Source: Candidatus Microgenomates bacterium (GTDB lineage Bacteria; Patescibacteriota; JACPGU01). Taken from it: DNA of 64,000 nt. Under the pieces are notes generated by a model. That model was not told where the DNA came from. It ran no database searches and saw only the letters and a program-made list of their open reading frames with translations. Shown here piece after piece: positions 1 to 50,500 of the stretch. The position numbers and the translations under genes were made by a program. Location: contig JACPGU010000002.1 in assembly GCA_016188915.1 (NCBI GenBank), forward strand, positions 85,287 through 149,286. The letters are read 5' to 3'. The first letter of the stretch is position 1. The number at the start of each line of letters is the position of its first letter.

Positions 1-279
1 GCGAAAAAAAGAAAAGAGGCCGAAGAAGCTTTTGCCAAAGGCGGAAGAGAAGATTTGGCCCAAAAAGAAAAAAATGAAAGTGATATGCTCGCTCCCTATT
101 TGCCTGTCAGCAAAACAGAAGATGAGATAAAAACCATAGTAGCTTCTGTTATTAGCGAAACGGAGGGGGCGTCTATGTCTGATATGGGAAAAATAATAAA
201 AACAGTTATGGAGAAAGCAGGCGGAGAAGCGGAAGGATCAATCGTTAGCCGATTGGTCAAAGAATCTCTATCAAAATAA
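1..279 (+). CDS. GatB/YqeY-domain protein, C-terminal part (5' end lies outside window)
   Basis: Frame 1 is open from nt 1 with no upstream stop. The translation ...LAPYLPVSKTEDEIKTIVASVISETEGASMSDMGKIIKTVMEKAGGEAEGSIVSRLVKESL fits the conserved C-terminal half of YqeY/GatB-like proteins (YLP..LSeeE...V..vI.E.Ga...mGkvMk.vM.k..G.adG..v...Vk..L). Confidence 0.65.
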   Translation, partial: AKKRKEAEEAFAKGGREDLAQKEKNESDMLAPYLPVSKTEDEIKTIVASVISETEGASMSDMGKIIKTVMEKAGGEAEGSIVSRLVKESLSK

Positions 280-20629: not shown

Positions 20630-22240
20630 TTAGCAATTGGAGAGGTCGCATAGTGGCCTAGTGCGCCGCCTTGGAAAGGCGGTATATCCGCAAGGGTATC
20701 GGGAGTTCGAATCTCCCCCTCTCCGTTTATAGGGATAGATGTGCCTTTTCTGTATTATCAGGAAGGGTTTTTTTAGTATAATATCGAGTTTTTTGTTAGT
20801 CAAAGTGAAGTTCGAACCGATTGTTTTCAGGATTTGCTTTTTCGTCTCCATATTTCCAGTTTCAAACTTTATTTTGGTGTAATAAGAGAAATTAAACAGT
20901 TCCTCTACTAGTTCGAGCTGACAGTATTCTTTGTCCCTCCATTTGTTCTCTAGTGTTGTTATTTCTTGTTCTTCCTGTATTGTTTCTTTGGAGAATTTTT
21001 CACAATCCTCTGAAGTGAAAAATCCATTATCTTCCAATATCTGTCTTTTCAGATTATCCATTTTCTTTTTATTGCTTTGCCTGCGTTGCTGAAGACCTTT
21101 CAATATCTCGGTCTGAGTTTTTATCTCCTGATTGTTATGCTCTCTTGCATATTTCAAGACCCATTCCTTGAATTTATCAGAGATAGTTATACTATTTATG
21201 GTTTCTAGTAATTGCCTGTCGAGCTCTTTAGCTACTATGTATGGTTGGGAGCACTTTATCGCTTTGTTCTTTCTTGTGCAACGGTAGTAGGTGTAGTATG
21301 GGGTTTTAATGCGAGTTGCGTGGCGGTTCCTGTGTTCCTCTGCTGTTATCGAGCAACCACATTCGCCACATTGTATTAGGCCAGTGAAATCAAAGTCGTG
21401 CTTTTGTTTTCTTGGCTTACCCTTACTTCCTAGGGCATCCTGAATGTAATCAAACTCCTCTGGCGTTATCAGGGATATATGATGGCCTTGCTTAATGCTT
21501 CCTCTGTGCTTAATCATTCCGTAGTAGAACGGGTCGGTCAAAATCCTATAAAATGTGCTCCTAGACATTGGGCCACCACCCATTTTTTTAGTTCTTGGAG
21601 TTCGGTAGCCATACTCATTGTTTAGTGTTTCCAGAGCCTGTCTAACTTCGTATTTGTCATACAGGATTAGCTCTAACGACTTTCTTATTAGGTTAAATCT
21701 CTCAGGGTCGGGGATGGATTCACTCAATCCCTCTCCCCTAGAACCATCGTTAATATATCCTGCTGGTGCAGAGCCAGGCCTTAACCCTCTCTCGAACTTC
21801 TGCCTATACCCCCTCAGGATATCCTCACTTTTATTGTCGTTTTCTAACTTTGCCTGATTGCAAATCATACTAAAAAGAAATTTATCATTGGGGGTATTTT
21901 TGAATACTTGGTTTGGTGTTCTAATTTCAGCTATTTTACCCGAATCCATCAGGTATACCAACATCCCAGTGTCGACAGAATTTCTCGATAACCTGTTTGC
22001 ATTCCAAGTAAGAATACCGTTAGCTTTATTATGTTCGAATCCCTTAATCATATCATTGAACACTGGTCTGCCAGGCTTCTTGGCGGTGTGAGATTCCTGT
22101 AATGTATCGCAAATATGTAAACCAATCTTTTTTGACAATACACTTAACTCCGCTATTTGTGACTCAATAGAAGCAGCCTGCTTCTCTTCTTGCTCTGACG
22201 ATTTTCTTGCGTATAGAATATAATTTATTTTTTCTTCCAT
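20630..22240 (-). CDS. large serine recombinase (integrase), 3' end antisense to tRNA-Ser
   Basis: 536 aa. Resolvase-type catalytic N-terminus YILYARKSSEQEEKQAASIESQ. Central recombinase domain and a Cys-rich zinc-ribbon region (CGECGCS...YYRCTRKNKAIKCSQPY). The last roughly 30 codons lie entirely within the tRNA-Ser gene on the opposite strand. Confidence 0.85.
   Translation of the reverse strand: MEEKINYILYARKSSEQEEKQAASIESQIAELSVLSKKIGLHICDTLQESHTAKKPGRPVFNDMIKGFEHNKANGILTWNANRLSRNSVDTGMLVYLMDSGKIAEIRTPNQVFKNTPNDKFLFSMICNQAKLENDNKSEDILRGYRQKFERGLRPGSAPAGYINDGSRGEGLSESIPDPERFNLIRKSLELILYDKYEVRQALETLNNEYGYRTPRTKKMGGGPMSRSTFYRILTDPFYYGMIKHRGSIKQGHHISLITPEEFDYIQDALGSKGKPRKQKHDFDFTGLIQCGECGCSITAEEHRNRHATRIKTPYYTYYRCTRKNKAIKCSQPYIVAKELDRQLLETINSITISDKFKEWVLKYAREHNNQEIKTQTEILKGLQQRRQSNKKKMDNLKRQILEDNGFFTSEDCEKFSKETIQEEQEITTLENKWRDKEYCQLELVEELFNFSYYTKIKFETGNMETKKQILKTIGSNFTLTNKKLDIILKKPFLIIQKRHIYPYKRRGGDSNSRYPCGYTAFPRRRTRPLCDLSNC
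20639..20725 (+). tRNA. tRNA-Ser (anticodon GGA), class II with long variable arm
   Basis: Hand-folded. Acceptor GGAGAGG/CCTCTCC, D-stem GCAT/GTGC, anticodon stem CCGCC/GGCGG with loop TTGGAAA, 6-bp variable arm ATATCC-GCAA-GGGTAT, T-stem GGGAG/CTCCC with loop TTCGAAT, discriminator G. Confidence 0.85.
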
Positions 22241-22299
22241 ATACTTGTTGTTTATTTATATTATAGTTATTTTCCAAACAAAATAAAAGAGTTTTTGGC

Positions 22300-22530
22300 T
22301 TAATCAAGCGTAGTTTTTCGATGCTGTTCTCGGAATCTACTTTCTGACTTTATACTGCTTCCTATACCAACAACTGCTTTCGGCAAGCAATCGACCTCTT
22401 GTGGAGCGACTAACTGAAATATCTCTATCAGTTCTGCTCCTTTGCCCATAGCTTCACTGTCGGGGATAGTCTCTCCGAACTCTTCTTCCCAAATATCTTG
22501 TAATGCTCTTATGGACTCGTCTGACAACAT
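22300..22530 (-). CDS. hypothetical protein
   Basis: 76 aa, acidic, no motif. Confidence 0.3.
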   Translation of the reverse strand: MLSDESIRALQDIWEEEFGETIPDSEAMGKGAELIEIFQLVAPQEVDCLPKAVVGIGSSIKSESRFREQHRKTTLD

Positions 22531-22576
22531 TTCACTCTTCTTTCTCGTAATTTCTTACGGTTCTTTATAATAAAAA

Positions 22577-22605
22577 AATCTGGGTCAGTGCGGTGAACCC
22601 AGATT
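22577..22605 (-). terminator. hairpin terminator candidate, also one arm of an 11-nt inverted repeat
   Basis: AATCTGGGT-(11 nt)-ACCCAGATT. On the minus strand it is followed by TTTTTTTATTAT. Its loop GGTCAGTGCGG recurs inverted at 22655-22665 (CCGCACTGACC). Confidence 0.4.
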
Positions 22606-22953
22606 CTTTTAACTAAACTCAATTTAATTTAATTAAATTCAGTAAACATAAGTCCGCACTGACCTTGACTCTTAAAGTGTTAAGTTGCAGGCGGTAATAA
22701 AAAACCGTCCTGCTGATATCAAAAAAGCTTTCATCACGTGAGCAATATATGCTTCTTTGATTTTGGCAGAACGGCATTATAGCCAGTTCTTATAATGTCT
22801 TGTATTTTTGTTTAACTTTGCCTAGTTGTTAATTCTATTTTAACTCTCTGGGATAAAGCGTCAATAGCTTTTTTGGCTTATCTATGTGATAGTTTGGTAG
22901 AGTATTGAAGACTAGTCAAAATATCTGTGGAAAACTATAATGCGTTGACCTTA

Positions 22954-24249
22954 TTATATTCGTCGTTCTATAAATTTATCTTGAAACTTTTCAATAGTCT
23001 GGAACGACACTTCGTTGAAGTTAAATATCTTGAAAAGCTTTATGCATAAATCATTTGCTGTTTCTTTCCATAAAGACTTTAGTTTTACCGATGACACTCT
23101 TTCGTCCAAAGATACTACGGATTCACGACAAATATACCAATCGTAAAGCAAAATATTAAAGTCGTAGGATTTTAGCTTTCTATCTTCAGCACCGTAAAGT
23201 TTTATACCAATATCAATATCGCCATCGTAGTTTAGCTCATCTACATAAAACTGTTTAGAGAATAAGAGAAATTCTGTTATTGAGTATATGGCTCCTATAT
23301 AGCTTAATGCTTTGCCTGTGTCGGTTTCGTCCTGTTTTGCACCGTCTTCTCTTAGAGTGATTTTGTAAACAAAAAGACCGCTCTGGAAAAGACGGAAAGC
23401 TTCATAATGCTTTGGTTCAAATTTTGTCCACGACTGAACACCTTTTGAAAAGTTAGCAAAATCGTTTTTATCAAGATGTGGAAAATCCCACCCCCTCAAT
23501 TGAACTCTCTGGTTCTCAACTGCTTGTTTTACTTTGGTTATATCTGGAATTAAGTCTTTTTTATATTCGGTTGGTTTTACCACTATTTCCCAATATCCAT
23601 ATTTTTTTAACTCTTCTCCTATTTTTTTCTCGATATAGTCACTGGCTTCGACCAACTCATCCTTGTAATCGTCATTTTCTTCTGTATTGCTGGGTCTTCC
23701 ACTAAACAGTCGTCCAATCTGATTCAATAGAAAATCTCCTTTCTTGGTCATTGCCCTACCAAGTAATTCTCGCATTTCCGTTGAAGATGGTATGGCTTCG
23801 CTCGATCCCTTTTCCGTTCTAATATAAATGCCCCCATCTTTTAGTATCGGTTGCTGTTTTGTATTCTGATTACTCCTCTTGCATATTATTGGTTCTTCAT
23901 CGAATTCGGGTACTTCTATTATGACAAGGTTCTTTCCTTTATAAATAGGTCGTTGAACATAAACTGTAAATTTAGGGTCTGTATAACTATGCAATTTATT
24001 ATTAAAGGAAGTCTGGTCAAAGGACGCGAGATTCTCATCGGATAAACCCTCTACTGTGCCGTCATCCTTTATGCCAATAAAAATTCTCCCACCGTTTTTA
24101 GTGTTTGCCATCGCCAATATGTCTTTTATGACACCGAGATGACAATCTTTATCAGTGTTGCAATTAAAATCTTCCTTAAAGTCGACATTGGCTGTCTCTG
24201 CTCTCGATTTAAATATTTGCTCTAGCTCTTCTTCTGGGTATTGCGACAT
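22954..24249 (-). CDS. Schlafen-like AlbA_2 (putative DNA-binding) domain protein
   Basis: 431 aa. The N-terminal 120 aa, FKEDFNCNTDKDCHLGVIKDILAMANTKNGGRIFIGIKDDGTVEGL, match the AlbA_2/divergent-Schlafen pattern (E..EfK....DK...i.k.isAfANt.GG.l.iGv.DdG.i.G). The C-terminal 250 aa are unassigned. Confidence 0.55.
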   Translation of the reverse strand: MSQYPEEELEQIFKSRAETANVDFKEDFNCNTDKDCHLGVIKDILAMANTKNGGRIFIGIKDDGTVEGLSDENLASFDQTSFNNKLHSYTDPKFTVYVQRPIYKGKNLVIIEVPEFDEEPIICKRSNQNTKQQPILKDGGIYIRTEKGSSEAIPSSTEMRELLGRAMTKKGDFLLNQIGRLFSGRPSNTEENDDYKDELVEASDYIEKKIGEELKKYGYWEIVVKPTEYKKDLIPDITKVKQAVENQRVQLRGWDFPHLDKNDFANFSKGVQSWTKFEPKHYEAFRLFQSGLFVYKITLREDGAKQDETDTGKALSYIGAIYSITEFLLFSKQFYVDELNYDGDIDIGIKLYGAEDRKLKSYDFNILLYDWYICRESVVSLDERVSSVKLKSLWKETANDLCIKLFKIFNFNEVSFQTIEKFQDKFIERRI

Positions 24250-24409
24250 AAAGTTTCATTAATATCTCTATTTATTATAACACAAAAAAACAGGATTTGC
24301 CCTGTTATTTTTGTCCGAAAAAGAGTTGTTTAATGGACAGATGTTTTACTTTTACCTGTAAGGTTGAATAGCCACTATTTTCGATAGGGTTTTTTGGACA
24401 GGCGATATT

Positions 24410-25198
24410 TCATTTAATATCTATGTCGTCCATATCAATATCCATAAGCTCTCTAAATTTTTCGGCTATGCTTTTCCATTTACCTGCCGTTGGTTCGGAA
24501 ATATCTATTACTAACTCGCCATTAAGGTTTTTCTTTATATACTTATGTTTCTTGATTTTCTCATAAAAAATTACTTCCATAAATTCATTTAGTAAGCTAA
24601 GTGTCGTCTTGATAGCCATAAACACCCCATAATGATATTTCTCGTGTTCTTTTTTGTAACCACCACCAATCCAAAGTGTAGGATTTGTCTGGTCGAGATT
24701 TCCCTTGGGGGCAGTATGTAAGAGGCTTATATGCGAAATATAGTTGCTTAGTACTCCATACTCCTGCCCAGCCAATGGAATAGCTTTGGTGGCAATTGAG
24801 ATAGCCTTTGTAGAGTCATACTTATTCGATTTTAACTGTATCAGTTTGTCGGGGTTAGAATGTATATCAAAAGCAGAAGCCACTGTTTCTACTACCATTC
24901 TTAAGATTGTCTGTGGCTCCAAGATATGTCCTCTTCTAAAGATTTCTATTGCAGATATTATTGACCCAAGCCCATTCCATAAAAAAATAGCGGATTGAAA
25001 ATCTGCATCAGATAGAGCATTCTCTCCTTCAGAATCAATAAGACCGATAAGGGTTTCTAATGACTCGGCTATTTCTTCTGCGAGACCATAGAATATCTCG
25101 TCATAATTACTATCAAAATCTTGGGCGACAAGGTCGCTTTTTGACTTTATATGTCCCAAAACGGTTTCTGTTGTAATTGGTTGCCTAACCGTATCCAT
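24410..25198 (-). CDS. hypothetical protein (island cargo)
   Basis: 262 aa, no recognisable motif. Acidic C-terminus MDIDMDDIDIK. Confidence 0.35.
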   Translation of the reverse strand: MDTVRQPITTETVLGHIKSKSDLVAQDFDSNYDEIFYGLAEEIAESLETLIGLIDSEGENALSDADFQSAIFLWNGLGSIISAIEIFRRGHILEPQTILRMVVETVASAFDIHSNPDKLIQLKSNKYDSTKAISIATKAIPLAGQEYGVLSNYISHISLLHTAPKGNLDQTNPTLWIGGGYKKEHEKYHYGVFMAIKTTLSLLNEFMEVIFYEKIKKHKYIKKNLNGELVIDISEPTAGKWKSIAEKFRELMDIDMDDIDIK

Positions 25199-25223
25199 AG
25201 TAACATTATACTATTTTTATAGA

Positions 25224-25805
25224 CTATTTGAAACTAGAAATCGCATTTTGTACTGTCGATTTTGAGATGTTTACCATACTTGCTATTCTCCTAACAGACA
25301 ACCCTTGCTGTCTTAATTCACTTATCCGAACAATATCAATCTCTGATGCTGGTCTGCCTATTTTCTTTCCTTTTGCTCTTGCCTTTGCCATTCCTGCCCT
25401 CACCCTCTCTTGGATTATTGACCTCTCAAATTCTGCGAAAGCAGATATCATTGTGAACATTACCTTCCCTGTCGGTGTCGATGTGTCTATCGCCTCTTGA
25501 TAGCTCACAAAGTCTATTCCTAGCGAATTAAAGGTATCCAGAGAGGTTATGAGTTGCTTTGTGCTTCTACTGAACCTATCAAAGCGAAATACCACCACAC
25601 AATCAAATTTTCTCTTGTGAGCGTCATTTAATAGCTCCGTAAGGGCCGGTCTGTTTTCTTTGCTTCCGCTATCCGTATCAGTGTAGCTTCTGAATACCTC
25701 CCAGCCTCTATTTTTCACATACTCTTGTAATGGTATCAGTTGGGTATCGAGGTCTTGGTTCTTATCTGTGGTACTTATACGAGCGTAGATTGCAATTTTT
25801 TTCAT
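25224..25805 (-). CDS. small serine recombinase (resolvase/invertase family)
   Basis: 193 aa. Catalytic N-terminus IAIYARISTTDKNQDLDTQ. C-terminal HTH LSVRRIASMVNISKSTVQNAI. Confidence 0.8.
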   Translation of the reverse strand: MKKIAIYARISTTDKNQDLDTQLIPLQEYVKNRGWEVFRSYTDTDSGSKENRPALTELLNDAHKRKFDCVVVFRFDRFSRSTKQLITSLDTFNSLGIDFVSYQEAIDTSTPTGKVMFTMISAFAEFERSIIQERVRAGMAKARAKGKKIGRPASEIDIVRISELRQQGLSVRRIASMVNISKSTVQNAISSFK

Positions 25806-25844
25806 ATCTTGTGGTTAGTTATATTGCTATTGGCACAAAACAAA

Positions 25845-25866
25845 AGCCTCGCATTTCTACGAGGCT
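25845..25866 (-). terminator. rho-independent terminator (minus strand)
   Basis: AGCCTCG-catttcta-CGAGGCT. Followed on the minus strand by TTTTGTTTTG. Lies 3' of yidD. Confidence 0.55.
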
Positions 25867-26003
25867 TTATTGTTGAGTAATTTCTCTTTTCTATTTTTCG
25901 GTTTTTTCTTTTCGCTCCCCATAACCAAAATTATTGTATAGATTTAGTATAGAATATGAACTATCTGTGTCAATAGTTATTGTCTATATGAGGCCAAATA
26001 TCA

Positions 26004-26219
26004 CTATGGGTAATCTATACAGCTCTCGAAATTGTCTGGGCGACATCGGTTAATACGATTGAGGGCTTTTCTTGTCCCCATTGTCACTCCATACTTCTCA
26101 ATAGCCAATATGGCATAATCGGAACAAGTTGGATAAAAACGGCACTGTATCCTGCGTCTCAAAAGTGGCGAAATTGTCTTCTGGTAGACAACTATTAAGA
26201 ATATAACTAATTTTGACAT
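26004..26219 (-). CDS. yidD: membrane protein insertion efficiency factor YidD
   Basis: 71 aa. The RFYPTCSDYA motif and overall pattern are typical of the YidD family. Confidence 0.75.
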   Translation of the reverse strand: MSKLVIFLIVVYQKTISPLLRRRIQCRFYPTCSDYAILAIEKYGVTMGTRKALNRINRCRPDNFESCIDYP

Positions 26220-26220
26220 C

Positions 26221-26478
26221 CTATAGTTCGTGTGTTATTTCTTCTTTTTTTATAGCTCGAGAACCACATTTTGGGCACTTGCCAAGGTCTAGTGGCTTTT
26301 TGTCTGGGATAAATGCAGCGGGGCCACAACCAGAACAGCACGATGCAGATTTGCCACAATTCTCCATCGATTCGCCACACGACTGTGCCGCTTCCTGCTT
26401 ACCATAGAACCAGATATTCCCACAAGCACTACAGCTACATTTTGTTTCCTTTATGATTTTGGGCTTTGTTTTTTCCAT
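26221..26478 (-). CDS. zinc-ribbon protein
   Basis: 85 aa with four CxxC pairs (CSCSAC, CCSGC, CPKC). Its end abuts the yidD start. Confidence 0.45.
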   Translation of the reverse strand: MEKTKPKIIKETKCSCSACGNIWFYGKQEAAQSCGESMENCGKSASCCSGCGPAAFIPDKKPLDLGKCPKCGSRAIKKEEITHEL

Positions 26479-26522
26479 ATTTCGTATTTAGTTAATAATA
26501 TGACAGTTGGGCTATTATTATC

Positions 26523-28073
26523 CTATTTGCAGGGTTCGTGTAGGGTTCTACTGGGATATGCTTTCTGTACAGCTTCTAAACTCGGAAAAGATTGTAGATA
26601 TTTTGTAGAGAGATTCTTATAGGCCGAGTCTGTATCGCAATAATAAAGATATGCTGTGCCATAAGAGCTCGCATAATAAGTGTGTCCAGATGTGGTTTGC
26701 GGGGCAGGGACTGGAGTGGGCGTTACTGGTGCTGGCACAGGGCTAGTTGGTGCTGGTGTGGTGGTAGTTGGTGACGAACTTGTTGTATTGCCGCTACAGG
26801 TAGTCGAGCTCCATAATCCCTTCTGCCCACTTCTCGCTTGTTTCTCTGCTTCTTTGAACTCGGCTTGGTATTTATATGGGATATCGTATGTATATTCGTG
26901 AGCATACCCATCACCAATCATTTGCTTGTTAAAAAATGTGCCATTTTCAAGATAAACATAACGCAATAGCCGACCATATTTGTCCCTATCCCCTTGAGTC
27001 GCATCAGATTCAAGCTTAACTTTCTTCCCCGAAAGCAATGCCTTCGCTCTATTGGAAGCCTCAACACCAAAACACTGAACTGGTTTTCGAGGGTCAACAG
27101 TTTCAGGAGTATCTACACCTATTAGACGAATCGTTTCTGTCTTTCCGCTAACACTGGCCTTAAAAGTATCGCCATCCGTTACGGAAACAACGCCATAATA
27201 CTGTGTAGTGGTCTGGGTGGGCGTTGTCTGGTTGCTCTGGGTGTTTGAACCAGAAGATGACTGACTAGCGTCCGTTTTGTTGTCTTCCCCTGTTGTTTGG
27301 GATTCTTGATTTGCCTCCTCCTTCTTTGGTGGAGTATAGGTTATTTTTATATCCTTTCTGTCGCTTTGATTCCCTGCTTCATCTATAGCTATAAGATAAA
27401 AATTGTTCTCTCCTTCATTCAGGCTGACTGAATCAACGGTAATTTCTTCGCTGGATTCTCGTACCTCTTTAATTTTTTTGTTGTCTGAACCAAAAAGTTC
27501 TATTCTTGCGTTTTTCTCTGTTTTTCCTTTTATATCTGTCTTGTCTTTGTCGCTAGTAATCTCTGTATTTTCAAGTTCTATGTTTGGCTTTTGTGTATCA
27601 AGAATAATTTTTTTAGTAGCACTTTTATTTGTACTGCCATTACTGTCTGTTGTGCTTACATAAACTGTGTTTTCACCTTCATTGAGCGTAAACTCTCCAA
27701 AAATGAACTTTCCGTTGGAATCGGCAATCACTTCTTGGATTTCTTGATTATTTATCATAAGTTTCGCTTTTGTCCCGCTTTCAATATGGTAGCCAGAGAC
27801 AACAACCGCCTTTTGATTAGTCGGACTTTTTATTTCATCTAAAAAAGGTTGTCCTTTTGCCGACAAGGACATTATCAGAATCAAAAACACCACAACAACT
27901 ATGGTGGCAATGATTTTATAGACTCGTCCCCATTTGGTCTTCGCCCAAATAGTCCAGACAGCAATAAAGGGTAATAAGAGAATGATAACTGGTAGTAAAA
28001 CGATGATGGCTACAATGCCCCACCATTTTGCATACCATCCTCTTTTTTTGGTTTTTACTTCGGTGTTTTCCAT
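26523..28073 (-). CDS. membrane-anchored secreted thermonuclease (SNase-like) with Ig-like domains
   Basis: 516 aa. N-terminal TM helix, then two beta-sandwich-like regions, then an SNase core VSVTDGDTFKASVSGKTETIRLIGVDTPETVDP...RDKYGRLLRYVY. Ends in a Pro/Thr-rich linker and a Cys-containing C-terminus. Confidence 0.7.
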   Translation of the reverse strand: MENTEVKTKKRGWYAKWWGIVAIIVLLPVIILLLPFIAVWTIWAKTKWGRVYKIIATIVVVVFLILIMSLSAKGQPFLDEIKSPTNQKAVVVSGYHIESGTKAKLMINNQEIQEVIADSNGKFIFGEFTLNEGENTVYVSTTDSNGSTNKSATKKIILDTQKPNIELENTEITSDKDKTDIKGKTEKNARIELFGSDNKKIKEVRESSEEITVDSVSLNEGENNFYLIAIDEAGNQSDRKDIKITYTPPKKEEANQESQTTGEDNKTDASQSSSGSNTQSNQTTPTQTTTQYYGVVSVTDGDTFKASVSGKTETIRLIGVDTPETVDPRKPVQCFGVEASNRAKALLSGKKVKLESDATQGDRDKYGRLLRYVYLENGTFFNKQMIGDGYAHEYTYDIPYKYQAEFKEAEKQARSGQKGLWSSTTCSGNTTSSSPTTTTPAPTSPVPAPVTPTPVPAPQTTSGHTYYASSYGTAYLYYCDTDSAYKNLSTKYLQSFPSLEAVQKAYPSRTLHEPCK

Positions 28074-28297
28074 ATCGTTTGGTTATTTATAAACACAAAA
28101 AAGGTCACCTGAACTAGCGGTGTAACCTTGCGGACACACCCGCTATCCTTTCGGATAGTGACCTCAACGACGAAGTACCAGTCAGATGACCGTTCTTGTC
28201 GTTGAGGATTTCATAACCATACCTCAAATTACTTCGAGGGTTAGGTTAATACTCTAAATTGTAAATATACTCTATCATAAAAATCTACCAGAGTAAA

Positions 28298-28930
28298 CTA
28301 CCCATAAAACTTCCATTTCTTCTTTAATTCTTCTTGATAGCAGTCAAAGGATTCATCTTCATTTTCAATTAAAGACCATTGTGAAAACCAAAGTCGCACT
28401 CTTTTTTGTTTATCTTCTTCCGTTCCATCTTGCCATCCCCCAAACCTCTTTTTTCCTATAGCCGTATGGGAATCTATAAAAATTTCTTTTATCTCTGGAA
28501 AATTTTCATCCTTATCTATTTCGTCCACTACGATATTGGTCAGGTTATCTCCGAGTCTTGTCTTTTTATTCCTGCAAGCCAAAACTATTAGATTAACAAA
28601 GGGGAGAAATCCATCTCCCCCAAAGTTCGTTTTGAATACTGATAGGTTCATTCTTATTTCCAGTATCCCTGCCAACGTTAGTGCTGTTGTGTTTGCTAGT
28701 CCTATGTCCTCGTGGACTATCGTGTTTAATCGTCTGCTCAAATATTTTCCGTATCCTGAAGCGTAAAATATGTAAGCAAATTTACAAGCGTCTCTTTCGT
28801 CTCCCCTCCTGATACATTTCTGAAGAGCTGAAGCAACGAGGTCAAAAGTATATCCTTTATCTTCAAATTTCTTTGCCAATTTTATCTCCCATCCTTTTCC
28901 TGCTTTTTGTTTCTTTTCTTCTGCCATCAA
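28298..28930 (-). CDS. stand-alone RarA/MgsA C-terminal-domain (MgsA_C)-like protein lacking AAA+ module
   Basis: 210 aa. FDLVASALQKCIRRGDERDACKFAYIFYASGYGKYLSRRLNTIVHEDIGLANTTAL...LIVLACRNKK lines up with the RarA C-terminal pattern [47 protein letters not shown]...VYLACAPKS. Confidence 0.5.
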   Translation of the reverse strand: MMAEEKKQKAGKGWEIKLAKKFEDKGYTFDLVASALQKCIRRGDERDACKFAYIFYASGYGKYLSRRLNTIVHEDIGLANTTALTLAGILEIRMNLSVFKTNFGGDGFLPFVNLIVLACRNKKTRLGDNLTNIVVDEIDKDENFPEIKEIFIDSHTAIGKKRFGGWQDGTEEDKQKRVRLWFSQWSLIENEDESFDCYQEELKKKWKFYG

Positions 28931-29120
28931 TTTGTTTTAGTTATGTTTTTATTTTAGTTTATGTACCCACTGTGTCAATAGGATTTTAGCTTAACCAAGG
29001 GTCTTTTCTGCCATCACACAACATCGTGTACAACCCTTGCTGTCTTGAATGATGGGTTTGATTTAAGTCATTATTTGTGCGATAATACAAGCGAATTACA
29101 GGTAATAGCGTGTAAAAACA

Positions 29121-30569
29121 ATGTCAAATATAGACTCGCCTCAATATCTATCAAGCAAGGACATCGGAGTTTTGAAAAAAACCCTTGTCTCGTTTGCAAT
29201 CGACACATCAAAAGACAAACGAATCGGGCAACCCTATTTCCAGAACAATGAGCAATGGGAATTTTTCTATTTATACTTTAAAAAACACGCAGAGGAAGAT
29301 ATAAAGAAAATCTGTAGCAATATCATAAGCAATCATAAAGAGATTAAAAAGACGATATTTTTTGATGCAATCTACGATATATTCCAAAGAAATGTTTTTT
29401 ATGCTATTTTTCGAGGCGAATTCACCGCTGTGGCGTTAAAAACCGAGAAATTTGATGATGGCAGTATGGCTATTGACCTCGCTCCTCGTAAAGTGGGTTT
29501 AGATACATTCATTAAATATTCTGATGACTTAGCTATTCCGATTGTCGAGCACATAAACCAGCAGATAGCCAATAAAATATCTTTTTACAAGAATCATAGA
29601 GTGATAACGTGGGTGCCAGTTACCAACTTACGCATAGACAAAGATGTATGTTTTGAATTTGCCAATGTTAGTTTTATCTCTAAAGAGTGTCCCGCTCTTA
29701 CGGAAAATTTTGTAAAGTGGGTTAAAATGGATAAGTTTCGAGATGGCGAGAGGACAATGCTTAGAGATTCTGGAAATTTTGCTATTATAAAGTTCGAGGG
29801 CTGTTCAGCACCAAAAGCAATCTTTGATTTAAGTAGGCCATATTTCAATAAAGTGTTTGGTGTCCTCCGTCTATTGCTAGATTGGGCAGAGGTAGAAGGA
29901 GAACTTATAGGGACAAAGCAGTCATTGGAGACAGAATATACCGTGATTTATTCTGAGAGTAGTCACGATAACTCCACGATGACAGCAGTGATGCCAGAAA
30001 TAAATAGCGATTTCTTTATTGCAAGAAATGAATATTGGATACGTTGTCCGATAATTAGCAGTAAGAGCATTGAGCAAATATCGAACTCTCCTAACCTCAA
30101 AGCCACAAATGCGTTATTGGAAAGGGCATATAACAGTAAGAGTACCTCATTGGATAGCAAGATTTTTGACTCATTATTTTGGTATTCAGAAAGCTTAAAA
30201 CATTTTACTACTCCCCATAAACTTGTTGGATTTGTAACTGCCCTAGAGACTATTCTTACAAGCAATAAGCTAACAGAGGGTTTTTATGACAAATCAATAT
30301 CGGAAATGTTCTCAGAACGAGGAGCTATAGTGTTGTGCGATAGCTATGAAGATAGATTGGAAATGAAACGAAAACTAAAAGGGATATATCGCATAAGAAG
30401 TATATTGGTTCACGGTTCTGGAACGGGTAGCATATCAGATTCCGAAATCACCGATGCTCATCATCTAGCCACAGGCATTTTGTTGGGAGTCATTGACTTA
30501 GCGAACAAAGAGAATATTTCTTCAGTAGAAGAACTGAACGATTATTTTCAAAAAGTATTACTGTCCTAG
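29121..30569 (+). CDS. HEPN-like (Rx4-6H) domain protein, possible abortive-infection/defense effector
   Basis: 482 aa. The C-terminal alpha region carries KLKGIYRIRSILVHGSG (R-x4-H and R-x6-H). The N-terminal 300 aa are unassigned. Confidence 0.4.
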   Translation: MSNIDSPQYLSSKDIGVLKKTLVSFAIDTSKDKRIGQPYFQNNEQWEFFYLYFKKHAEEDIKKICSNIISNHKEIKKTIFFDAIYDIFQRNVFYAIFRGEFTAVALKTEKFDDGSMAIDLAPRKVGLDTFIKYSDDLAIPIVEHINQQIANKISFYKNHRVITWVPVTNLRIDKDVCFEFANVSFISKECPALTENFVKWVKMDKFRDGERTMLRDSGNFAIIKFEGCSAPKAIFDLSRPYFNKVFGVLRLLLDWAEVEGELIGTKQSLETEYTVIYSESSHDNSTMTAVMPEINSDFFIARNEYWIRCPIISSKSIEQISNSPNLKATNALLERAYNSKSTSLDSKIFDSLFWYSESLKHFTTPHKLVGFVTALETILTSNKLTEGFYDKSISEMFSERGAIVLCDSYEDRLEMKRKLKGIYRIRSILVHGSGTGSISDSEITDAHHLATGILLGVIDLANKENISSVEELNDYFQKVLLS

Positions 30570-30595
30570 GTTTAATACTATAAGCAACCACTATA

Positions 30596-31129
30596 TTAAC
30601 AGCTTCTCCTTATTCCCAGCTTTATTTCAAAATCTATAAGTGTCTTGGTGGCTTCTAAAGCAAATTTCAATGCTTTGTGCCTTGCTCTAAGAGGCATCTT
30701 GGTTGTTTCTTCGTAGTCTCTCCCTAATTCTTGGTACCTTTTCATAGCTTCTTGGCAAATCGCAATGAGTGATTTCAGGGAATCAAATTCCTGTTTTTCA
30801 TAAACAATTTTTATCTTTCTAAAAAAATATGGATTTCCACTAATAATTACTGCTGAATCTTGTGTTAAGAGATTATTTCTATAATTATTTATAACAGTGT
30901 GGGACGGGATACTTATATTGGGATAATTTATACGGTTGCTTCTAACCAAATACTCTAACTCTGACTTAACTTTTCTTGAAGAATAACCACCGATTACCAT
31001 TTGCCTTAATTCATCCTCTAGCTCCGTTGGGAGAGTAGCTATCTTATTTTTATACCCATAGTCCTTTAGCAGGAGCATTTCTGCTAAGTTATCGGTATTT
31101 CTTTTGATTTGTTCTTCGGTCATTTTCAT
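30596..31129 (-). CDS. hypothetical protein
   Basis: 177 aa, no motif. Confidence 0.35.
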   Translation of the reverse strand: MKMTEEQIKRNTDNLAEMLLLKDYGYKNKIATLPTELEDELRQMVIGGYSSRKVKSELEYLVRSNRINYPNISIPSHTVINNYRNNLLTQDSAVIISGNPYFFRKIKIVYEKQEFDSLKSLIAICQEAMKRYQELGRDYEETTKMPLRARHKALKFALEATKTLIDFEIKLGIRRSC

Positions 31130-31304
31130 ATTTTCTCCTGCATTTCCCGAACAGTTGTAAAGGGATAATTGTATTACCTCATATTTTTTGGTATTATTTA
31201 TGAAGTTTGTATATTAAATGACTGGGATTAGTATTGGCTCTAGCTCCATCAAAGAAATTCGAATGTCGTCCCAGAAGTCCCGTTTTTTGAAAAAAATGCC
31301 GAAA

Positions 31305-31990
31305 GAAAAGCGCGGGGCGTGATGCCCCGCGATAAAATGTATGCTTCAAGCGATCTGCGAGGGGCGCAGATTGCCCAAAACATTACGCGTAATGTCTTAG
31401 TTTTAGTTTCCACTTCACACTATCCCCATAGTGCTTTTTCACCTCTTAATGCTGGCCAGCCACGAAGTTGTGATAATTCTCGAGATCTGACCTTGTCGAA
31501 ATCGTGAAGGACCTGGTGTTGCCGTCACAATCAGAGGCCGTCAGGGTGTCTCCTTTGTGAACCACTTTTCCCCCCAAACAACCAATGATTTCCCTCTCTT
31601 TTGTAGCTTCCCATAAAATCGGGAGTTCTTCTTTCCGCCCTTCTCTTACTGTTCCTTGATCTTGAGTTCGCATGCTCTGAGCCTTTCTGGTTCGTCTGCC
31701 GTAGACAGACTATGGTTTTTTCCTTCCTACTGAAAGGAAAGCTCTACTCTCCCTTCAGGGATTAGCCCCGAGTTATTCCCGGTTTGTTTTGGGACTAATC
31801 CAGTGCCGATAGATCACCTCCTTGCGTTCTCCTTGAGATTTTACACCAGAGCCCAGAAAGTAGGCTTTTATTTTTAAGGTCGGAAAGGTGTTCGCAACAA
31901 CATGGAGAGAAAACTGTCAGAGCATGCGAAGGCGAGCCAGTTTTCTCATCCATGTGTCGCGAACCTGCCGGAATAATAATCTTATGTTAG
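31305..31990. ncRNA. candidate large structured non-coding RNA (identity and strand unresolved)
   Basis: This is an ORF-free stretch of about 0.7 kb with visibly higher GC than the flanks. It contains local hairpins GCGGGGC-gtgat-GCCCCGC (31311-31332), ATCTGCG-aggg-CGCAGAT (31352-31374), CCTTCC-tactgaa-AGGAAAG and GGATTAG...CTAATCC. It also has a perfect 14-nt long-range complement GTTCGCATGCTCTGA (31668-31682) with TCAGAGCATGCGAA (31918-31932), and a crossing complement ATTCCCGG (31781-88) with CCGGAAT (31964-70). Confidence 0.35.
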
Positions 31991-32015
31991 CAAAATAAGA
32001 GAAGAAAGTCAAGCC

Positions 32016-33497
32016 CTAGGGTAGATGCACGGCCTTGGCGGCGTAGGACCTGTGATCGTTGGCAACAATCACCACCAAATCTTCTTTTTTGGCCAATTTT
32101 TTGGTTTTGACGAAATGGGCGATTTCCGCCATCAACTTTTTCTCATTTTCCAGAAAAATCCCGTAGCCGGCCACTACCCCCCAAGAAAGAGCCAGTTGAT
32201 TGATGACTTTTTTGTCATGGGAGAGCGCCACCACGAAACATTGCGGCCTGGACTGCGATATCATCCGCGCCGAAAATCCTGTTTCGGTAAAGCAAACGAT
32301 GCATTTAGCCTTCACATTTTTGGCCAAGGCTTTCGCCGAAGGACCGATGATTTTTGGCGAGATGACGCGATGCGACTGGTTTTTCAAGGGTACCAGATTG
32401 GTTAGTGAAAAATTCTCAAAATTGAGCCTGCCAGTGCGGAAAAGTCCCTTCTCTGTCTCGCGAATGATAGAGGCCATCATTTTCACCGCCTTGATCGGAT
32501 AGGGCCCCATAGCTGTTTCTTCCGACAGCATCACCGCGTCCGTGCCATCCAGCACCGCGTTGGCCACATCGGAAACTTCGGCTCTGGTTGGCCTGGGACT
32601 GGTCATCATTGACTCCATCATTTGAGTCGCCGTAATGACCGGCTTGCCACTTGATACCGCGGCCGCAATGATTTCTTTTTGCGCCAAAGGCACTCTCTCC
32701 GGTGGCAATTCAATCCCTAGATCGCCACGAGCCACCATCACGCCATCGGCTTCCCGCAAGATGCTTTTGATACTGCTGTATGCGTGCGGTTTTTCTATTT
32801 TGGCGATGATTTTGACTCGCGAATCTTTGCGAATTTTGCGAATTTCTTTGCGAAGAATACGAATGTCTTCCGCCGACTGAACAAAAGAAAGCCCAATGAA
32901 ATCCACGTCGTGTTCCACTCCCCAGCGCAAATCGGCCAAATCTTTTTTCGTTAACGCGCCTATGGATAGATGAGCGTTGGGAATATTGATGCCCTTACGA
33001 GACAAAACCAATCCCCCGCGAACCACTTGCGCCTCGGCCATTCCTTTTGCTTTGCCGATCACTTTGAGCTCCACCATGCCGTCCATCATAAGGATTTTGG
33101 TGCCAATTTTTACCTCTTCGGCCAATTGTTTGTAATCAATGGGAAGAAAACCTTTTTTGAATTTGCCGAAACCTACCGAGATTTTCTCGCCTTCGGTCAA
33201 AACAACGCCTTTTTTCGGCAGATCGGCTCCCAAGCGAATCCGCGGCCCTTGAAGATCTTGCAAGATGGCCAGCGACTGATGGTCTTCGTTAGCAATACGC
33301 CTCAATTGATAAAGCCATTGCTCGAACTCTTCATATTTACCGTGCGAAAAATTAAACCGCGCCACATCAAGCCCGGCCTCAATCAAGGCTCTCTGCGTTT
33401 TTTCATCTTTCGTCGCCGGCCCGATGGTGGCGACAATCTTTGTGCGATTTTGGGAAATGTTCATTTTGTTTTTATTAGTTTCTCTATTGTGTTCCAA
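32016..33497 (-). CDS. pyk: pyruvate kinase
   Basis: 493 aa. KIVATIGPATKDEKTQRALIEAGLDVARFNFSHG, ...MVARGDLGIE and later motifs are present. Has a short N-terminal extension. Confidence 0.9.
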   Translation of the reverse strand: MEHNRETNKNKMNISQNRTKIVATIGPATKDEKTQRALIEAGLDVARFNFSHGKYEEFEQWLYQLRRIANEDHQSLAILQDLQGPRIRLGADLPKKGVVLTEGEKISVGFGKFKKGFLPIDYKQLAEEVKIGTKILMMDGMVELKVIGKAKGMAEAQVVRGGLVLSRKGINIPNAHLSIGALTKKDLADLRWGVEHDVDFIGLSFVQSAEDIRILRKEIRKIRKDSRVKIIAKIEKPHAYSSIKSILREADGVMVARGDLGIELPPERVPLAQKEIIAAAVSSGKPVITATQMMESMMTSPRPTRAEVSDVANAVLDGTDAVMLSEETAMGPYPIKAVKMMASIIRETEKGLFRTGRLNFENFSLTNLVPLKNQSHRVISPKIIGPSAKALAKNVKAKCIVCFTETGFSARMISQSRPQCFVVALSHDKKVINQLALSWGVVAGYGIFLENEKKLMAEIAHFVKTKKLAKKEDLVVIVANDHRSYAAKAVHLP

Positions 33498-47505: not shown

Positions 47506-50500
47506 TTATGGACCATAGTATATACCAGAAGTAGGCTGGCCTTGACTCGGTGGCTCTTTCTTTTTAGAGGCTGTTTTTTCTTGAACAGCTTTACCGCTAG
47601 CCAAGGTTCCGATATTTTTCTTTAATATTCCCTCTCTTGCCCAATCAATAGCCCTGGTAGTAGCGTCTATCTGCATTCTGATTTCCTCAGGATCAATCTG
47701 GTCAGTCTCTCGTCCGGCAAACTGCGGAGCAAAAACTTCTTTGGCTTTTCTAATCGCTTCAGAAAAATTATTCTGTAAATCATTAGTGATGCCCTGCATA
47801 TCATTCGTAATCTTTGTATACAACCCTTGTTCATTGCCTCCATACATCTGCAAAACTGATGGATTATCCAAAAATCCTTTTAACCGACTAGCGGCTTGCA
47901 ACTGCACATCATTTTTGCGACGAGCAAAAATCTGATCTAGATTGGAACGAATATTAACATTTTTCATAATCTTGGCCAGATCGCCAGCGTTATCACCTGG
48001 AGGCATCTCTAGATTCGCGTCCGACATATCCAGCTTTACATCAATACCATTTTCAGACAACACTTTGTTTATCTCGTCTTGGTCTCCGCTCATCATTGTT
48101 CTCTTAATAGCGTCTTTGGCGTCTTGAGAGATACCATTCTTTAAATTCATCAAAAACTGGTCTATCGTTCCATCTTGAGCAAACATATCACTTTTATTTC
48201 TAGCGCTAGCTTGCGCCAGATAACCCCATTGCTTGGATTCCAAAAGCCCAGTATCCATACTGCTAGCCTGCTGGCGTGGCATAGTAGTCAACAATTTTTC
48301 CGCCTCTTCGACAGGATTGAACCCCTCTGGAACGGGTTTGTATTTCTCTGGTTTGTCAAAGCCTTCTTCTCCGGCAAATTTAGATTGCCTTTTCATTTTC
48401 TCAACCGAATCCATAGTGATTCTATCTTCGCGGCTTACGCCCAAAGACTGGAAAAATCCTCTGGCTTCTTCTTGCCTTCTGGCGCCTTTTTCGCCGTTGC
48501 TTAACATCTGTAAGGCCTTCAAGGCAATGGCCCTTTCTTTATCGCTTTTATCGTTCATCAAAGTATTATACAGAGCCGAAGCAGCCACGCCCTGATCGGC
48601 TTTCTTCTGCGCTTCTTCTTTAATCTCCAACTCGGAGGCTCTCTTTGCCCACTTAGTAAAGGCACCTCTACTACTAGCCTTGCCAAAGGCTTTTTCTTGT
48701 TCTTTTTGAAATCTTTCGGCATTTTCTTCTATCATCTTGGGAGCGTTCTGGATAGTCAGTCCAGCGCTGGTGCCTTTTTTGGCTACTCTTGCCAATCCAT
48801 ATTTTAATTTTCCCCACCCACTAGAGTCTTTCAAATTGCCTTGATCGTCTTTGAACGTTTTGTCCAAATCCATAGAAGCCACTTTTTGTCTTTGTCCTTT
48901 GAGCCTTGCCCCCGCTGCTTTTTTCAAAGATTTAGCCGTAGCACTACCCAAAGGACCTTTTTTGCCACTAGCATATTCGGAAACCGCTTTCATAATATCA
49001 CCCCCCGCTTTCATCGGATAAGTGGCCGCGATATACAAGATCACTCCGGCTGTGATGAGTTGTAAAAGTCTCGGGGTGTCAGAAGTATATTCCGCATCAG
49101 GCAGAGGAGCTACCTCTAGCCCTGCCACAGCGATAGTTTTGGCCGCGACATACAAAAGCAGGGCCACCATCGGTCCCATCATCGCCCACTTCATAAACAT
49201 ATCCCACCATTTGCCGGTCTGCTCTTTGATTGCTTTGACCGGCGCGACATTAGCCAAATAGGGAATGGCCGAAAACATAAACAAAATATTCAAAACTATT
49301 ACCCGAACCCAAAGCAAAAGATATAGATAAAGCAAAATAATAGAAAAAGCCCAGGACAAAATAACTTGAACAAGGGCCGCGCCAAAAGTTTTATCGGCCA
49401 ATTGGTCAATAGTTTCCTTGCCCAGACCAAAAAGAGAATCTAAGGAAGCGCTGGAGCTAGTCGCATTTGGCTCGCCGAAAAGGAAAAAATTGGTCAAAAC
49501 ATTCATAAAAAGAATAATGAAATTGCAAATCGCCAAAGAAAAATTAACCAGTAAAATAGCTCCCACAATAGCCGGAATCATTCGACGAAACTGCCAAGTC
49601 TTCAAATCATAGCCAACAATATTAAGTAGTGCCATCGCCAAAAAAGAAAGCAAAAAGCCAATATTAATAATATTTCTAATAGTTCCCCAGACTTCCACTA
49701 CCTGATTATTACCTTCGGTCACCCCATAAACCAGCAGAACTTTTGACAAAAGCTCCGGATTGATCCAACCAAAAATAAATCTTTTTATCGCCAAAAGCAG
49801 AGACAAAAACCAACAACCGATACTGACAAAAACATCATGTTTTCCGGAAAACAATGTGAAAAAATTATAACTTGGCGGACAAGTATTTTTATTTGCTCCA
49901 GGCCCTAGTGGGTCTTTGCTCAAAGACTGTTCTCCTTTTAATTCCAATAATTCTTCTATTTCCTCCGATTTCTGAACAAAAGCTGTATATTCCGAACAAT
50001 CGCTTAGCGCCCCCGAACAAGAGCTATTGATAGCGGTTTGAGCCAACAATACGACTGTTTGCATATTGCTGATTTCTGTGGTTGCTTTTGTACAAGCATC
50101 TACTCTTTCTTGTGAAATTTCGTTGCCATCTTTGTCTTTGGCCTCATCGCCATTTTTAACAAAATAACAGAAATCTTTACTACTAGGTTTCCAGCGATCT
50201 CTTTCTGCCATAAAAGCCTCTGTGTCTGCCGTGCTAATATTTTTCAATTCTTCTGCTGTTTGCACTGCTCTGGTGTCCTCTACTATTTTTGAATAAAGAT
50301 CTTGCAGTTTTGTTATTGATTCTTTTTCTTCATCGGAAAGTTCATTTAACTGACTATAGGTCAAATTCTGAGGAGTATTGTCATAATAAGCCACCTGAAG
50401 ACCCCAATCTTTGAGAACATTTTCCATGGCAGAATCAAGCTGATTGGCATTTTGTCCTGTTATTCTTTCTACAAAAACCATCTTTGACTCATCTGTATAC

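Follow-up and report, generated by a model that had tools for sequence, protein, structure and literature searches.

A large serine recombinase frame that reads antisense through tRNA-Ser(GGA) very probably marks the attL end of an integrative island in a Microgenomates bacterium

Introduction

Phage Mx8 integrates at the 3′ end of a tRNA gene, that of tRNA-Asp, and phiRSM does so at the 3′ end of a tRNA-Ser gene. Here we describe a locus of a Candidatus Microgenomates bacterium at which the open reading frame (ORF) of a large serine recombinase (LSR) runs antisense through a tRNA-Ser(GGA) gene. The locus lies in a 64,000-nucleotide stretch of contig JACPGU010000002.1 (assembly GCA_016188915.1, positions 85,287 to 149,286), which we call the window and in whose numbering its features are given. 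Judging from sequence, the overlap is very probably the left attachment (att) junction, attL, of a 10.6-kb integrative island that was inserted by its own LSR at the extreme 3′ end of tRNA-Ser(GGA). The LSR belongs to a widespread, apparently undescribed group of serine integrases that target the ends of tRNA genes.

Reviews and databases treat tRNA genes as targets of tyrosine integrases and describe their use by serine integrases as unknown or unproven (PMC4383910, PMC7192596). Mobilizable elements with serine recombinases integrate within genes, often disrupting dispensable ones (PMC5704250). In the TIGER survey, 14 of the 297 islands with a serine integrase were placed at t(m)RNA genes, a location "not reported previously" for which "experimental proof will be required" (PMC7192596). 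tRNA is not mentioned in a large LSR discovery preprint, and the openly searchable literature (subscription-only papers being outside its scope) yielded no description of an LSR clade that targets tRNA ends.

In its domain order, Resolvase, Recombinase and zinc ribbon with an inserted coiled coil, the window LSR resembles the A118/LI, SPbeta SprA/YokA, TP901-1, Bxb1 and phiC31 integrases. As in the large serine integrases, its putative att sites are short, with a non-palindromic crossover dinucleotide and a 9-bp outer motif that lies 5 bp nearer the centre in attB. Unlike the characterised members, however, it would target the 3′ end of a tRNA gene and leave that gene intact; its attP would lie inside its own ORF, one half-site is without an outer motif, and further DNA-conserved copies of the motif occur 70 and 173 nt upstream. 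The phiRSM-type integrases share the serine-recombinase chemistry but are small, resolvase-like proteins of filamentous phages, without the Recombinase and zinc-ribbon domains.

Judged by analogy, the best functional counterparts of the window LSR are tyrosine systems, namely Mx8 IntP and the SSV-type integrases. As summarised in PMC4383910, the C-terminus of Mx8 IntP changes on integration (Tojo 1996), as we predict for the window LSR; yet IntP is a tyrosine recombinase of unrelated fold and chemistry, and the Mx8 attP is long and carries arm-type sites. In the 'suicidal' SSV-type integrases, found in viruses and plasmids of archaea, the integrase ORF contains an att site that corresponds to a tRNA gene, and integration rearranges the integrase gene (PMC7253208). 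These too are tyrosine recombinases, and their gene is split into two inactive halves, whereas the window LSR stays whole. The tyrosine islands of Islander and TIGER likewise sit beside an intact tRNA, with a tRNA-proximal integrase gene and tandem arrays at one tRNA. They differ in having a long tRNA 3′ fragment and a displaced copy, while identity in the LSR family is limited to 5–10 nt, CCGTTT in the window.

Results

The recombinase frame spans the tRNA gene

In the integrated state, the LSR ORF extends over 20630–22240 on the minus strand and encodes 536 aa (ORF translation and Pfam), ending ...KRRGGDSNSRYPCGYTAFPRRRTRPLCDLSNC (also given as ...IYPYKRRGGDSNSRYPCGYTAFPRRRTRPLCDLSNC). Opposite it, on the plus strand, lies tRNA-Ser(GGA), the host gene and putative integration target, which is 87 nt long without an encoded CCA and was placed at 20639–20725 by the Rfam tRNA model RF00005 (55.4 bits) and at 20638–20726 by ARAGORN. 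Its T-loop TTCGAAT occupies 20706–20712, the 3′ strand of the acceptor stem 20718–20724, and the discriminator G 20725. The codon of R506 coincides with 20723–20725 and residues 507–534 are antisense to tRNA nucleotides 1–70, while the final two residues and the stop codon TAA (20630–20632, 6 nt past the tRNA 5′ end) fall in the tRNA leader. An earlier note on this DNA had claimed that the LSR frame runs antisense through the entire 87-nt tRNA-Ser(GGA) and that its last ~30 codons are the reverse complement of the tRNA; the ORF, ARAGORN and Rfam coordinates bear this out, with the leader contributing to the last codons.

The overlap is not an assembly artefact, because independent Logan contigs match the window: L131 shows 100% identity over 20696–32577, and L118 and L119 show 100% identity up to 20665. 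The estimated chance of an open frame over 29 codons in random sequence is ~0.25, which is not improbable alone. What goes beyond chance is the association of LSR ORFs with antisense tRNA 3′ ends, which recurs in 41 of 80 homologous loci.

Homologous recombinases overlap tRNA 3′ ends in many phyla

The 120 best protein homologues of the LSR share 38–46% identity with it, have similar lengths and come mostly from metagenome-assembled genomes of Patescibacteria. Alignment with other large serine recombinases, which the earlier note had proposed, places the end of homology at ~residue 498 of the window LSR for most of them. Their C-termini mostly read ..LLRGQDSNLQPS, GIEPRF or IRT, with ...LLRGQDSNLQPSP, ...LRDLDSNQDTRLQRAMSYH, ...GIEPRFGG and ...GGRIRTCDL as examples. 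Read antisense, the T-loop of the tRNA is GGATTCGAACC, and its three frames give D-S-N, F/I-E-P and I-R-T.

We then compared 80 genomic loci with LSR homologues from many phyla, calling tRNAs with ARAGORN in flanks limited to 10 kb. An antisense tRNA follows the LSR gene in 42 of them, and in 41 the ORF overlaps the tRNA 3′ end, by 12–114 nt. The overlapped species are tRNA-Asn (10 loci), Gln (9), His (7), Trp (6), Leu (4), Asp (2), Ser (2) and Ile (1). In four of these 41 loci (L032, L038, L063 and L064) the ORF crosses the whole tRNA, and the length of the run-on depends only on the position of the first in-frame stop in the tRNA antisense. Tails of the tRNA type without a called tRNA occur in seven more loci, either at a contig end or with an intron-like insertion in tRNA-Asn. 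The family is commonest in Patescibacteria (the candidate phyla radiation, CPR), and is also present in Omnitrophota, Nitrospirota, Zixibacteria, Aminicenantes and others.

In 23 of the loci that lack a neighbouring tRNA, the ORF runs on as ..W-x-x-x-V-x-D-V-R-T-F-F.... At the DNA level, TGG is followed by a core that resembles a tRNA 3′ end and, exactly 18 nt after TGG, by GTT-MGA-ACY-TTT, with third codon positions fixed. These loci have an intact attP-like site inside the LSR ORF. At L014, an attP-type junction lies between tandem elements, and a second LSR, 34% identical to the window LSR, overlaps tRNA-Asn. The other end of the elements, attR, was found upstream of the LSR and on the same strand in eight loci (L001, L004, L005, L021, L033, L038, L048 and L054). 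Each of these sites combines a host T-rich trailer, 5–10 nt identical to the tRNA 3′ end, and GTTMGAACY exactly 18 nt after the discriminator complement; chance sites have identity runs of 0–3 nt only. Elements with both ends found measure 6–11 kb.

The att sites share one geometry

The identity blocks of the eight attL/attR pairs and of the window intersect at two positions, tRNA nucleotides 72–71, which we take as the crossover dinucleotide on the assumption of one register across the family. The dinucleotides read from sequence in this way are GG, TC, TG, AG and GT. All are non-palindromic, which fits a serine integrase, because a non-palindromic dinucleotide is needed for polarity.

GGA stands at positions 10–12 in all arm types, and the element-side arm mirrors GGA.T at positions 10–14 through N-P codons AATCC. 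In 42 tRNA arms, the 9-nt outer motif ATTCGAACC, which is the T-loop, lies at positions 12–20. In 32 arms of the attP type (P arms), GTTMGAACY lies at positions 17–25, that is, 5 bp farther from the crossover than the tRNA T-loop motif. By analogy, this shift matches the attB/attP rule of the LI (A118-family) integrase, whose 9-bp zinc-ribbon-domain motif lies at 16–24 in attP and at 11–19 in attB (Rutherford et al. 2013, PMC3783163). In the present family, the outer motif would accordingly be the part of the site read by the zinc-ribbon domain, and it is present in just one arm of each att site.

Both ends of the window island follow this geometry

At attL of the window, the core CCGTTT lies at 20723–20728 (plus strand) and is identical to the attR core; the putative crossover dinucleotide is CC at 20723–20724, tRNA nucleotides 71–72. 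The tRNA (B-type) half-site, delimited with the arm consensus from 42 sites, occupies 20694–20723 (minus strand). Read on the LSR strand, it has GGA at positions 10–12 and ATTCGAACT at positions 12–20, equivalent to plus-strand 20704–20712, the T-loop and its flanks. By the same arm consensus, the element-side half-site occupies 20724–20753 (plus strand), in the 3′ part of the LSR coding region; its GGA falls at positions 10–12 (20733–20735), and no outer motif was recognised in it.

The opposite end, attR, lies at 31251–31285. It was located with a P-arm matrix built solely from the P arms of other loci (positions 8–30, tRNA-specific core omitted), which gave its top score at 31273(−), with 15.7 bits against 12.6 for the next best of 127,956 positions on both strands. 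The P-type half-site there (31251–31280, minus strand) reads GGACTTCTGGGACGACATTCGAATTTCTTT on the LSR strand, with GGA at positions 10–12 and ATTCGAATT at positions 17–25 (plus-strand 31256–31264). AAACGG, the same six bases as at attL, stands at the exact expected offset; for a 6-nt match at the fixed offset of a single pre-selected site the chance is estimated at ~2e-4. The core CCGTTT at 31280–31285 (plus strand) would place the crossover CC at 31280–31281, and from crossover to crossover the island measures 10,557 bp (~20725–31281). On the host side of attR, the putative displaced original trailer of the tRNA follows at 31281–31340 (plus strand), with a T-run and then a GC-rich hairpin, GCGCGGGGC..GCCCCGCG.

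Rejoining the ends gives a reconstructed attB of ...GGGAGTTCGAATCTCCCCCTCT-CCGTTT-TTTGAAAAAAATGCC... and, on the LSR strand, a reconstructed attP of ...CATCTATCCCTAT-AAACGG-GACTTCTGGGACGACATTCGAATTTCTTTG.... The predicted attP comprises ~60 bp around CCCTATAAACGGGACTTCTGGGACGACATTCGAATTTC, and the predicted attB tRNA-Ser nucleotides 45–87 plus TTTTTTGAAAAAAATGCC; the predicted junction sequences are CTCCCCCTCTCCGTTTTTTGAAAAAAATGCC for attB and CTATCCCTATAAACGGGACTTCTGGGACGAC for attP. Read across the reconstructed attP, the ORF encodes 527 aa and ends ...YPYKR-DFWDDIRISLMELEPILIPVI (end also given as ...YPYKRDFWDDIRISLMELEPILIPVI), with D-D-I-R at the place of the family D-D-V-R-T.

Two other far-end candidates were set aside. 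The 11-mer ATCGGGAGTTC at 31618, derived from the tRNA, is within chance expectation and its continuation differs from the tRNA. The candidate AAGGTTCCGAT..CCCTCTC at 47603–47636 is part of a 1123-aa ORF, and its spacing is ~25 nt instead of 18. An exact GTTCKAAC search of the window for the far end had its sole match inside the LSR gene.

A proposed course of integration

We read the overlap as attL because the LSR ORFs of the family overlap antisense tRNA 3′ ends and the C-termini of the homologues are T-loop antisense; because the top P-arm site has AAACGG where it is expected and D-D-I-R is encoded by the ORF when continued across that site; and because the AF2 fold of the LSR ends at ~residue 499 with a disordered tail (see below) and housekeeping genes flank the island, peroxiredoxin and DnaG on the left of the tRNA and pyruvate kinase beyond attR.

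In the free circle, attP would lie inside the last codons of the LSR ORF, giving the 527-aa product. The host half-site would be the acceptor/T-arm of the tRNA, with GGA at 10–12 and ATTCGAACC at 12–20, and the P arm would offer GGA at 10–12 and GTTMGAACY at 17–25; the 5-bp offset between the motifs may be how the zinc-ribbon domain of the serine integrase tells attB from attP. A 2-bp crossover at tRNA nucleotides 71–72, within the shared 6-bp core CCGTTT, would leave the tRNA sequence intact and exchange its trailer for element DNA with a terminator hairpin. The integrated LSR ORF would then read on into the host tRNA antisense until the first stop, here just past the tRNA 5′ end.

The tRNA-Ser sequence is unchanged because only nucleotides 71–73 could come from the element, and these are identical in both partners. 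The element appears to supply only a new trailer and a terminator hairpin, not the tRNA body. The earlier note had suggested an attachment-site arrangement in which the element reconstituted the tRNA; the first part is essentially right, but the second does not hold, as the crossover falls at tRNA nucleotides 71–72 and the rest is host DNA. At a distance of 18 nt past the tRNA 3′ end, the LSR coding sequence contains a terminator-like hairpin followed by T7 (20743–20775, plus strand). This hairpin is probably the replacement terminator of tRNA-Ser, since comparable hairpins with T-runs sit ahead of the tRNA junction in many homologous loci.

The catalytic protein is complete without the tRNA-derived tail

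Pfam places the Resolvase domain (PF00239) at residues 8–152 (E = 1.8e-16), the Recombinase domain (PF07508) at 182–270 and Zn_ribbon_recom (PF13408) at 285–348. In a 36-sequence LSR alignment, R12 and S14 are invariant, with S14 as the catalytic serine expected of a resolvase-type domain, and the zinc-ribbon cysteines C291, C294, C321 and C330 are invariant too. The AF2 model predicts helices at 355–402, 410–436 and 440–461 (coiled coil 355–461), followed by a beta-hairpin at 475–489. It is confident to ~residue 499, and residues 500–536 have pLDDT values of 31–36 and no secondary structure. The nearest solved structure is that of SPbeta YokA (9dxh, E = 1e-7). The domains, the predicted fold and the att grammar mark the LSR as a large serine integrase.

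Residues 1–505 would derive from the element, the codon of R506 would span the crossover, and residues 507–536 (20633–20722, minus strand) would form a host-encoded read-through tail from the tRNA antisense and leader, which AF2 predicts to be disordered. In the integrated state this tail looks dispensable, with only ~20–30 residues exchanged and the catalytic protein predicted to stay whole. One alternative of the earlier note, that the recombinase truly ends earlier and the tail is read-through, was right in effect: homology and the confident fold stop at ~residue 499–505, and the tail follows the targeted tRNA. Another, that the C-terminus is constrained by the tRNA, finds no support, as the tails vary with the tRNA species and are predicted disordered.

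The T-loop-like motif recurs twice within the recombinase genes

The T-loop-like motif GGTTCGAACC / GTTMGAACC is conserved as DNA at two further places in the LSR genes. The first encodes an invariant G-S-N, for which 29 of 46 loci use GGTTCGAAC and 6 use GGCTCGAAC; the window carries GGTTCGAAC at 20810–20818 (minus strand). The serine codon is TCG in 36 of 38 cases, against 13% elsewhere in these genes. In 30 of 40 loci, its distance ahead of the discriminator position is exactly 174 nt; in short forms, to which the window belongs, it is 93 nt. At the second place, position −70 in long-form relatives, 44 loci have G-TTM-GAA-CC, coding x-L/F-E-P. The codon before it ends in G in all 44, whatever residue is encoded (third-position background 23%), GAA is used in 44/44, and TTA provides 27 of 33 Leu codons (background 17%). 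Because codon choice is far from background, we regard G-S-N, L/F-E-P and V-R-T as one DNA motif in three frames. The standard model would account only for the third copy (P arm, V-R-T), and the upstream two could be accessory binding sites.

A broader reading can be put forward tentatively, at slightly less than even odds. The family may be a large undescribed clade specialised on tRNA 3′ ends, which takes the universal T-arm (GG + TTCGAAnCC) as its host half-site and needs little beyond a change of the 5–10-bp core for a new tRNA species. Its attP would lie within the ORF and its genes would carry three motif copies, the upstream two possibly as accessory sites, an architecture not known for serine integrases.

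Discussion

Observations against an active island, and rival explanations

Several observations count against an integrative island in the window. The GC content of the island, 37.5%, is close to that of the left flank, 36.7%, and the P arm of the window, at 15.7 bits, scores at the low end of the training sites (range 9.4–31.3, median 24.4). The window copy may still be mobile, but with this low score it may also be decaying. Element-side arms across the family are without an inverted outer motif at 17–25, where the terminator hairpin lies, and attP has less symmetry than the classical sites of LSRs. Only 8 of the 41 tRNA-type loci yielded an attR; the missing ends probably lie beyond the 10-kb flanks. 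Logan look-ups and a metagenome scan found no empty attB and no circular attP junction for this organism, and Logan contig L131 crosses attR without a break. In the scan, the predicted attB junction (tRNA 3′ end plus T6) matched 11 tRNA-Ser genes, all of them unrelated, and a syntenic empty site was not among them. In Logan, exact-protein look-up of the LSR gave no match, look-up of peroxiredoxin (ATG start) gave the two 3.3-kb contigs L118 and L119, both ending inside the tRNA, and look-up of the 177-aa protein of the cargo led to L131, which spans attR and does not differ from the window. Unitigs break on either side of the tRNA: in the comparison with L118, L119 and L131 the shared segment is 20636–20725, the tRNA ± 3 nt. 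Such breaks agree with an identical tRNA-Ser in a second genomic context within the same samples and do not point to an empty site.

The failure to detect an empty site or circle, the unbroken attR in L131, the weak P-arm match and the flank-like GC content would also suit an LSR that is fixed in the chromosome, for example as a fossil or as a regulatory switch acting by inversion or excision, without marking the end of a currently mobile island. We consider this improbable, given that the family stands beside eight tRNA species in many phyla with cargo that varies between loci, that tandem arrays (L014, L043, L001, L021 and L048) and attP-type junctions are signatures of repeated mobility, and that the catalytic and zinc-binding residues are intact. 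Unlikely as well, if a little less so, is a selected function of the tail, in which integrase activity or abundance would be switched between the free and integrated states, either by the C-terminus that the tRNA encodes or by convergent overlap with this strongly transcribed gene. Integration would always swap the C-terminus, from ..D-V-R-T-F-F in the free form to a tRNA-derived tail, and the tyrosine integrase of phage Mx8, whose C-terminus is altered on integration according to PMC4383910 (citing Tojo 1996), offers a precedent. However, D-V-R-T is conserved as DNA (GTT, MGA, ACY), pointing to a DNA site and not to the peptide alone; there is no conservation past the motif, and the integrated tails, predicted disordered in the window, range from ~4 to 38 codons and follow the tRNA species.

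Most known tRNA-inserted islands are of a classical tyrosine type (PMC4383910), with the crossover in the anticodon or T-loop and a long 3′ part of the tRNA restored by the element, which would put the LSR tail under dual constraint. An 11-mer of the tRNA T-stem region does recur at 31618, and at L048 a 22-nt internal tRNA segment recurs 8.9 kb upstream. Such an origin is nonetheless very improbable for the window: the enzyme is a serine and not a tyrosine recombinase, and by Pfam the island has no tyrosine-family integrase, all its integrases being serine recombinases. Direct-repeat and 11-mer searches of the window found no displaced tRNA fragment beyond the 6-nt core CCGTTT, the 31618 match is no better than chance and continues unlike the tRNA, and in eight loci attL/attR identity is limited to the last few nucleotides of the acceptor stem. 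Hardly credible at all is an ordinary LSR gene made to run into the tRNA by a frameshift, an assembly error or a lost stop. The predicted disorder of the last 37 residues and the end of homology to most relatives would agree with it, but independent Logan contigs are identical across the junction region, and 41 other loci from different phyla have the same overlap. Relatives have no conserved stop before the tRNA, and the frameshift or assembly error that the earlier note had named as the refuting scenario is excluded.

Implications of tRNA-end targeting by serine integrases

The attL reading accounts for the single locus; family-wide, there appears to be an undescribed lineage of tRNA-end-targeting serine integrases with unusual att architecture. 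The window locus and its 80 relatives indicate that a whole serine-integrase lineage uses tRNA genes. They also suggest how: the T-arm would serve as the B-type half-site and the crossover would fall in the last base pairs of the acceptor stem, so that the tRNA stays intact. Such mobile DNA in CPR and other uncultivated bacteria will escape island finders in which tRNA genes are paired with tyrosine integrases alone, and gene callers report recombinases with spurious tRNA-derived tails. Serine integrases are favoured tools of genome engineering. If our reading is true, a T-arm motif found in nearly every tRNA gene together with a short specificity core would make an attractive scaffold for retargeting.

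Atypical loci

Repeated P arms, or copies or fragments of the tRNA, occur at single loci: L001 (325, 380, 688), L021 (515, 3107), L048 (1562, 2779), L043 (10777, 12374, 14562) and L014. Their sequences indicate tandem or successive insertions at one tRNA. At L055 (11570–11700), the last part of the LSR ORF is a 17-nt copy of the 3′ end of tRNA-Asn, and the real tRNA-Asn follows only after a 97-nt spacer; this atypical junction is possibly a remnant of an earlier event. L024, L059, L040 and L062 have an attP-type or unclassified C-terminus on Mb-sized chromosomes with no tRNA within 10 kb, for which longer tandem arrays or carriage inside another element are possible. At L010, L013, L035 and L053, a tRNA-Asn-like 3′ half with an interrupted anticodon region stands just after the LSR stop, a place where ARAGORN calls no tRNA. 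The interruption agrees with the group I introns recently reported from patescibacterial tRNA-Asn genes (PMC13011429). A scan of viral contigs gave 37 loci, mostly of another LSR subfamily matching residues 1–355 only; they were uninformative for attP, although a few lie beside tRNAs.

Cargo and neighbouring features

The cargo of the island, annotated with Pfam, PHROG, PADLOC and Rfam, extends over 22954–31129. It includes a Schlafen/AlbA_2 protein (22954–24249), an SNase-domain nuclease (26523–28073) and, just upstream of the nuclease gene, a LOOT RNA (RF03000, 74 bits; 28119–28247, minus strand). A small serine invertase of 193 aa (25224–25805, minus strand), of the invertase/resolvase type with a helix-turn-helix domain, could be an inversion switch or a resolvase. 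Further cargo comprises a 262-aa protein of unknown kind and proteins of 210, 482 and 177 aa, and no phage structural or conjugation genes were detected in the island by this annotation.

Directly upstream of the LSR lies a 76-aa ORF (22300–22530, minus strand), which has no Pfam, PHROG or PADLOC match. In the homology search of the loci, its N-terminal 41 aa recur in 11 other loci, on the LSR strand and with 35–49% identity; four of these loci have the copy directly upstream of the LSR. We regard it, speculatively, as a candidate accessory or directionality factor or regulator.

Between attR and the pyruvate kinase gene is a 710-nt gap without ORFs (31300–32010), with GC content above that of its surroundings. 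An Rfam search of 31.1–32.1 kb gave nothing below E = 0.4. Compared with shuffled sequences, RNA folding of the gap reaches z = −6.7 on the minus strand and −3.1 on the plus strand, and the gap could hold a large structured RNA or a leader.

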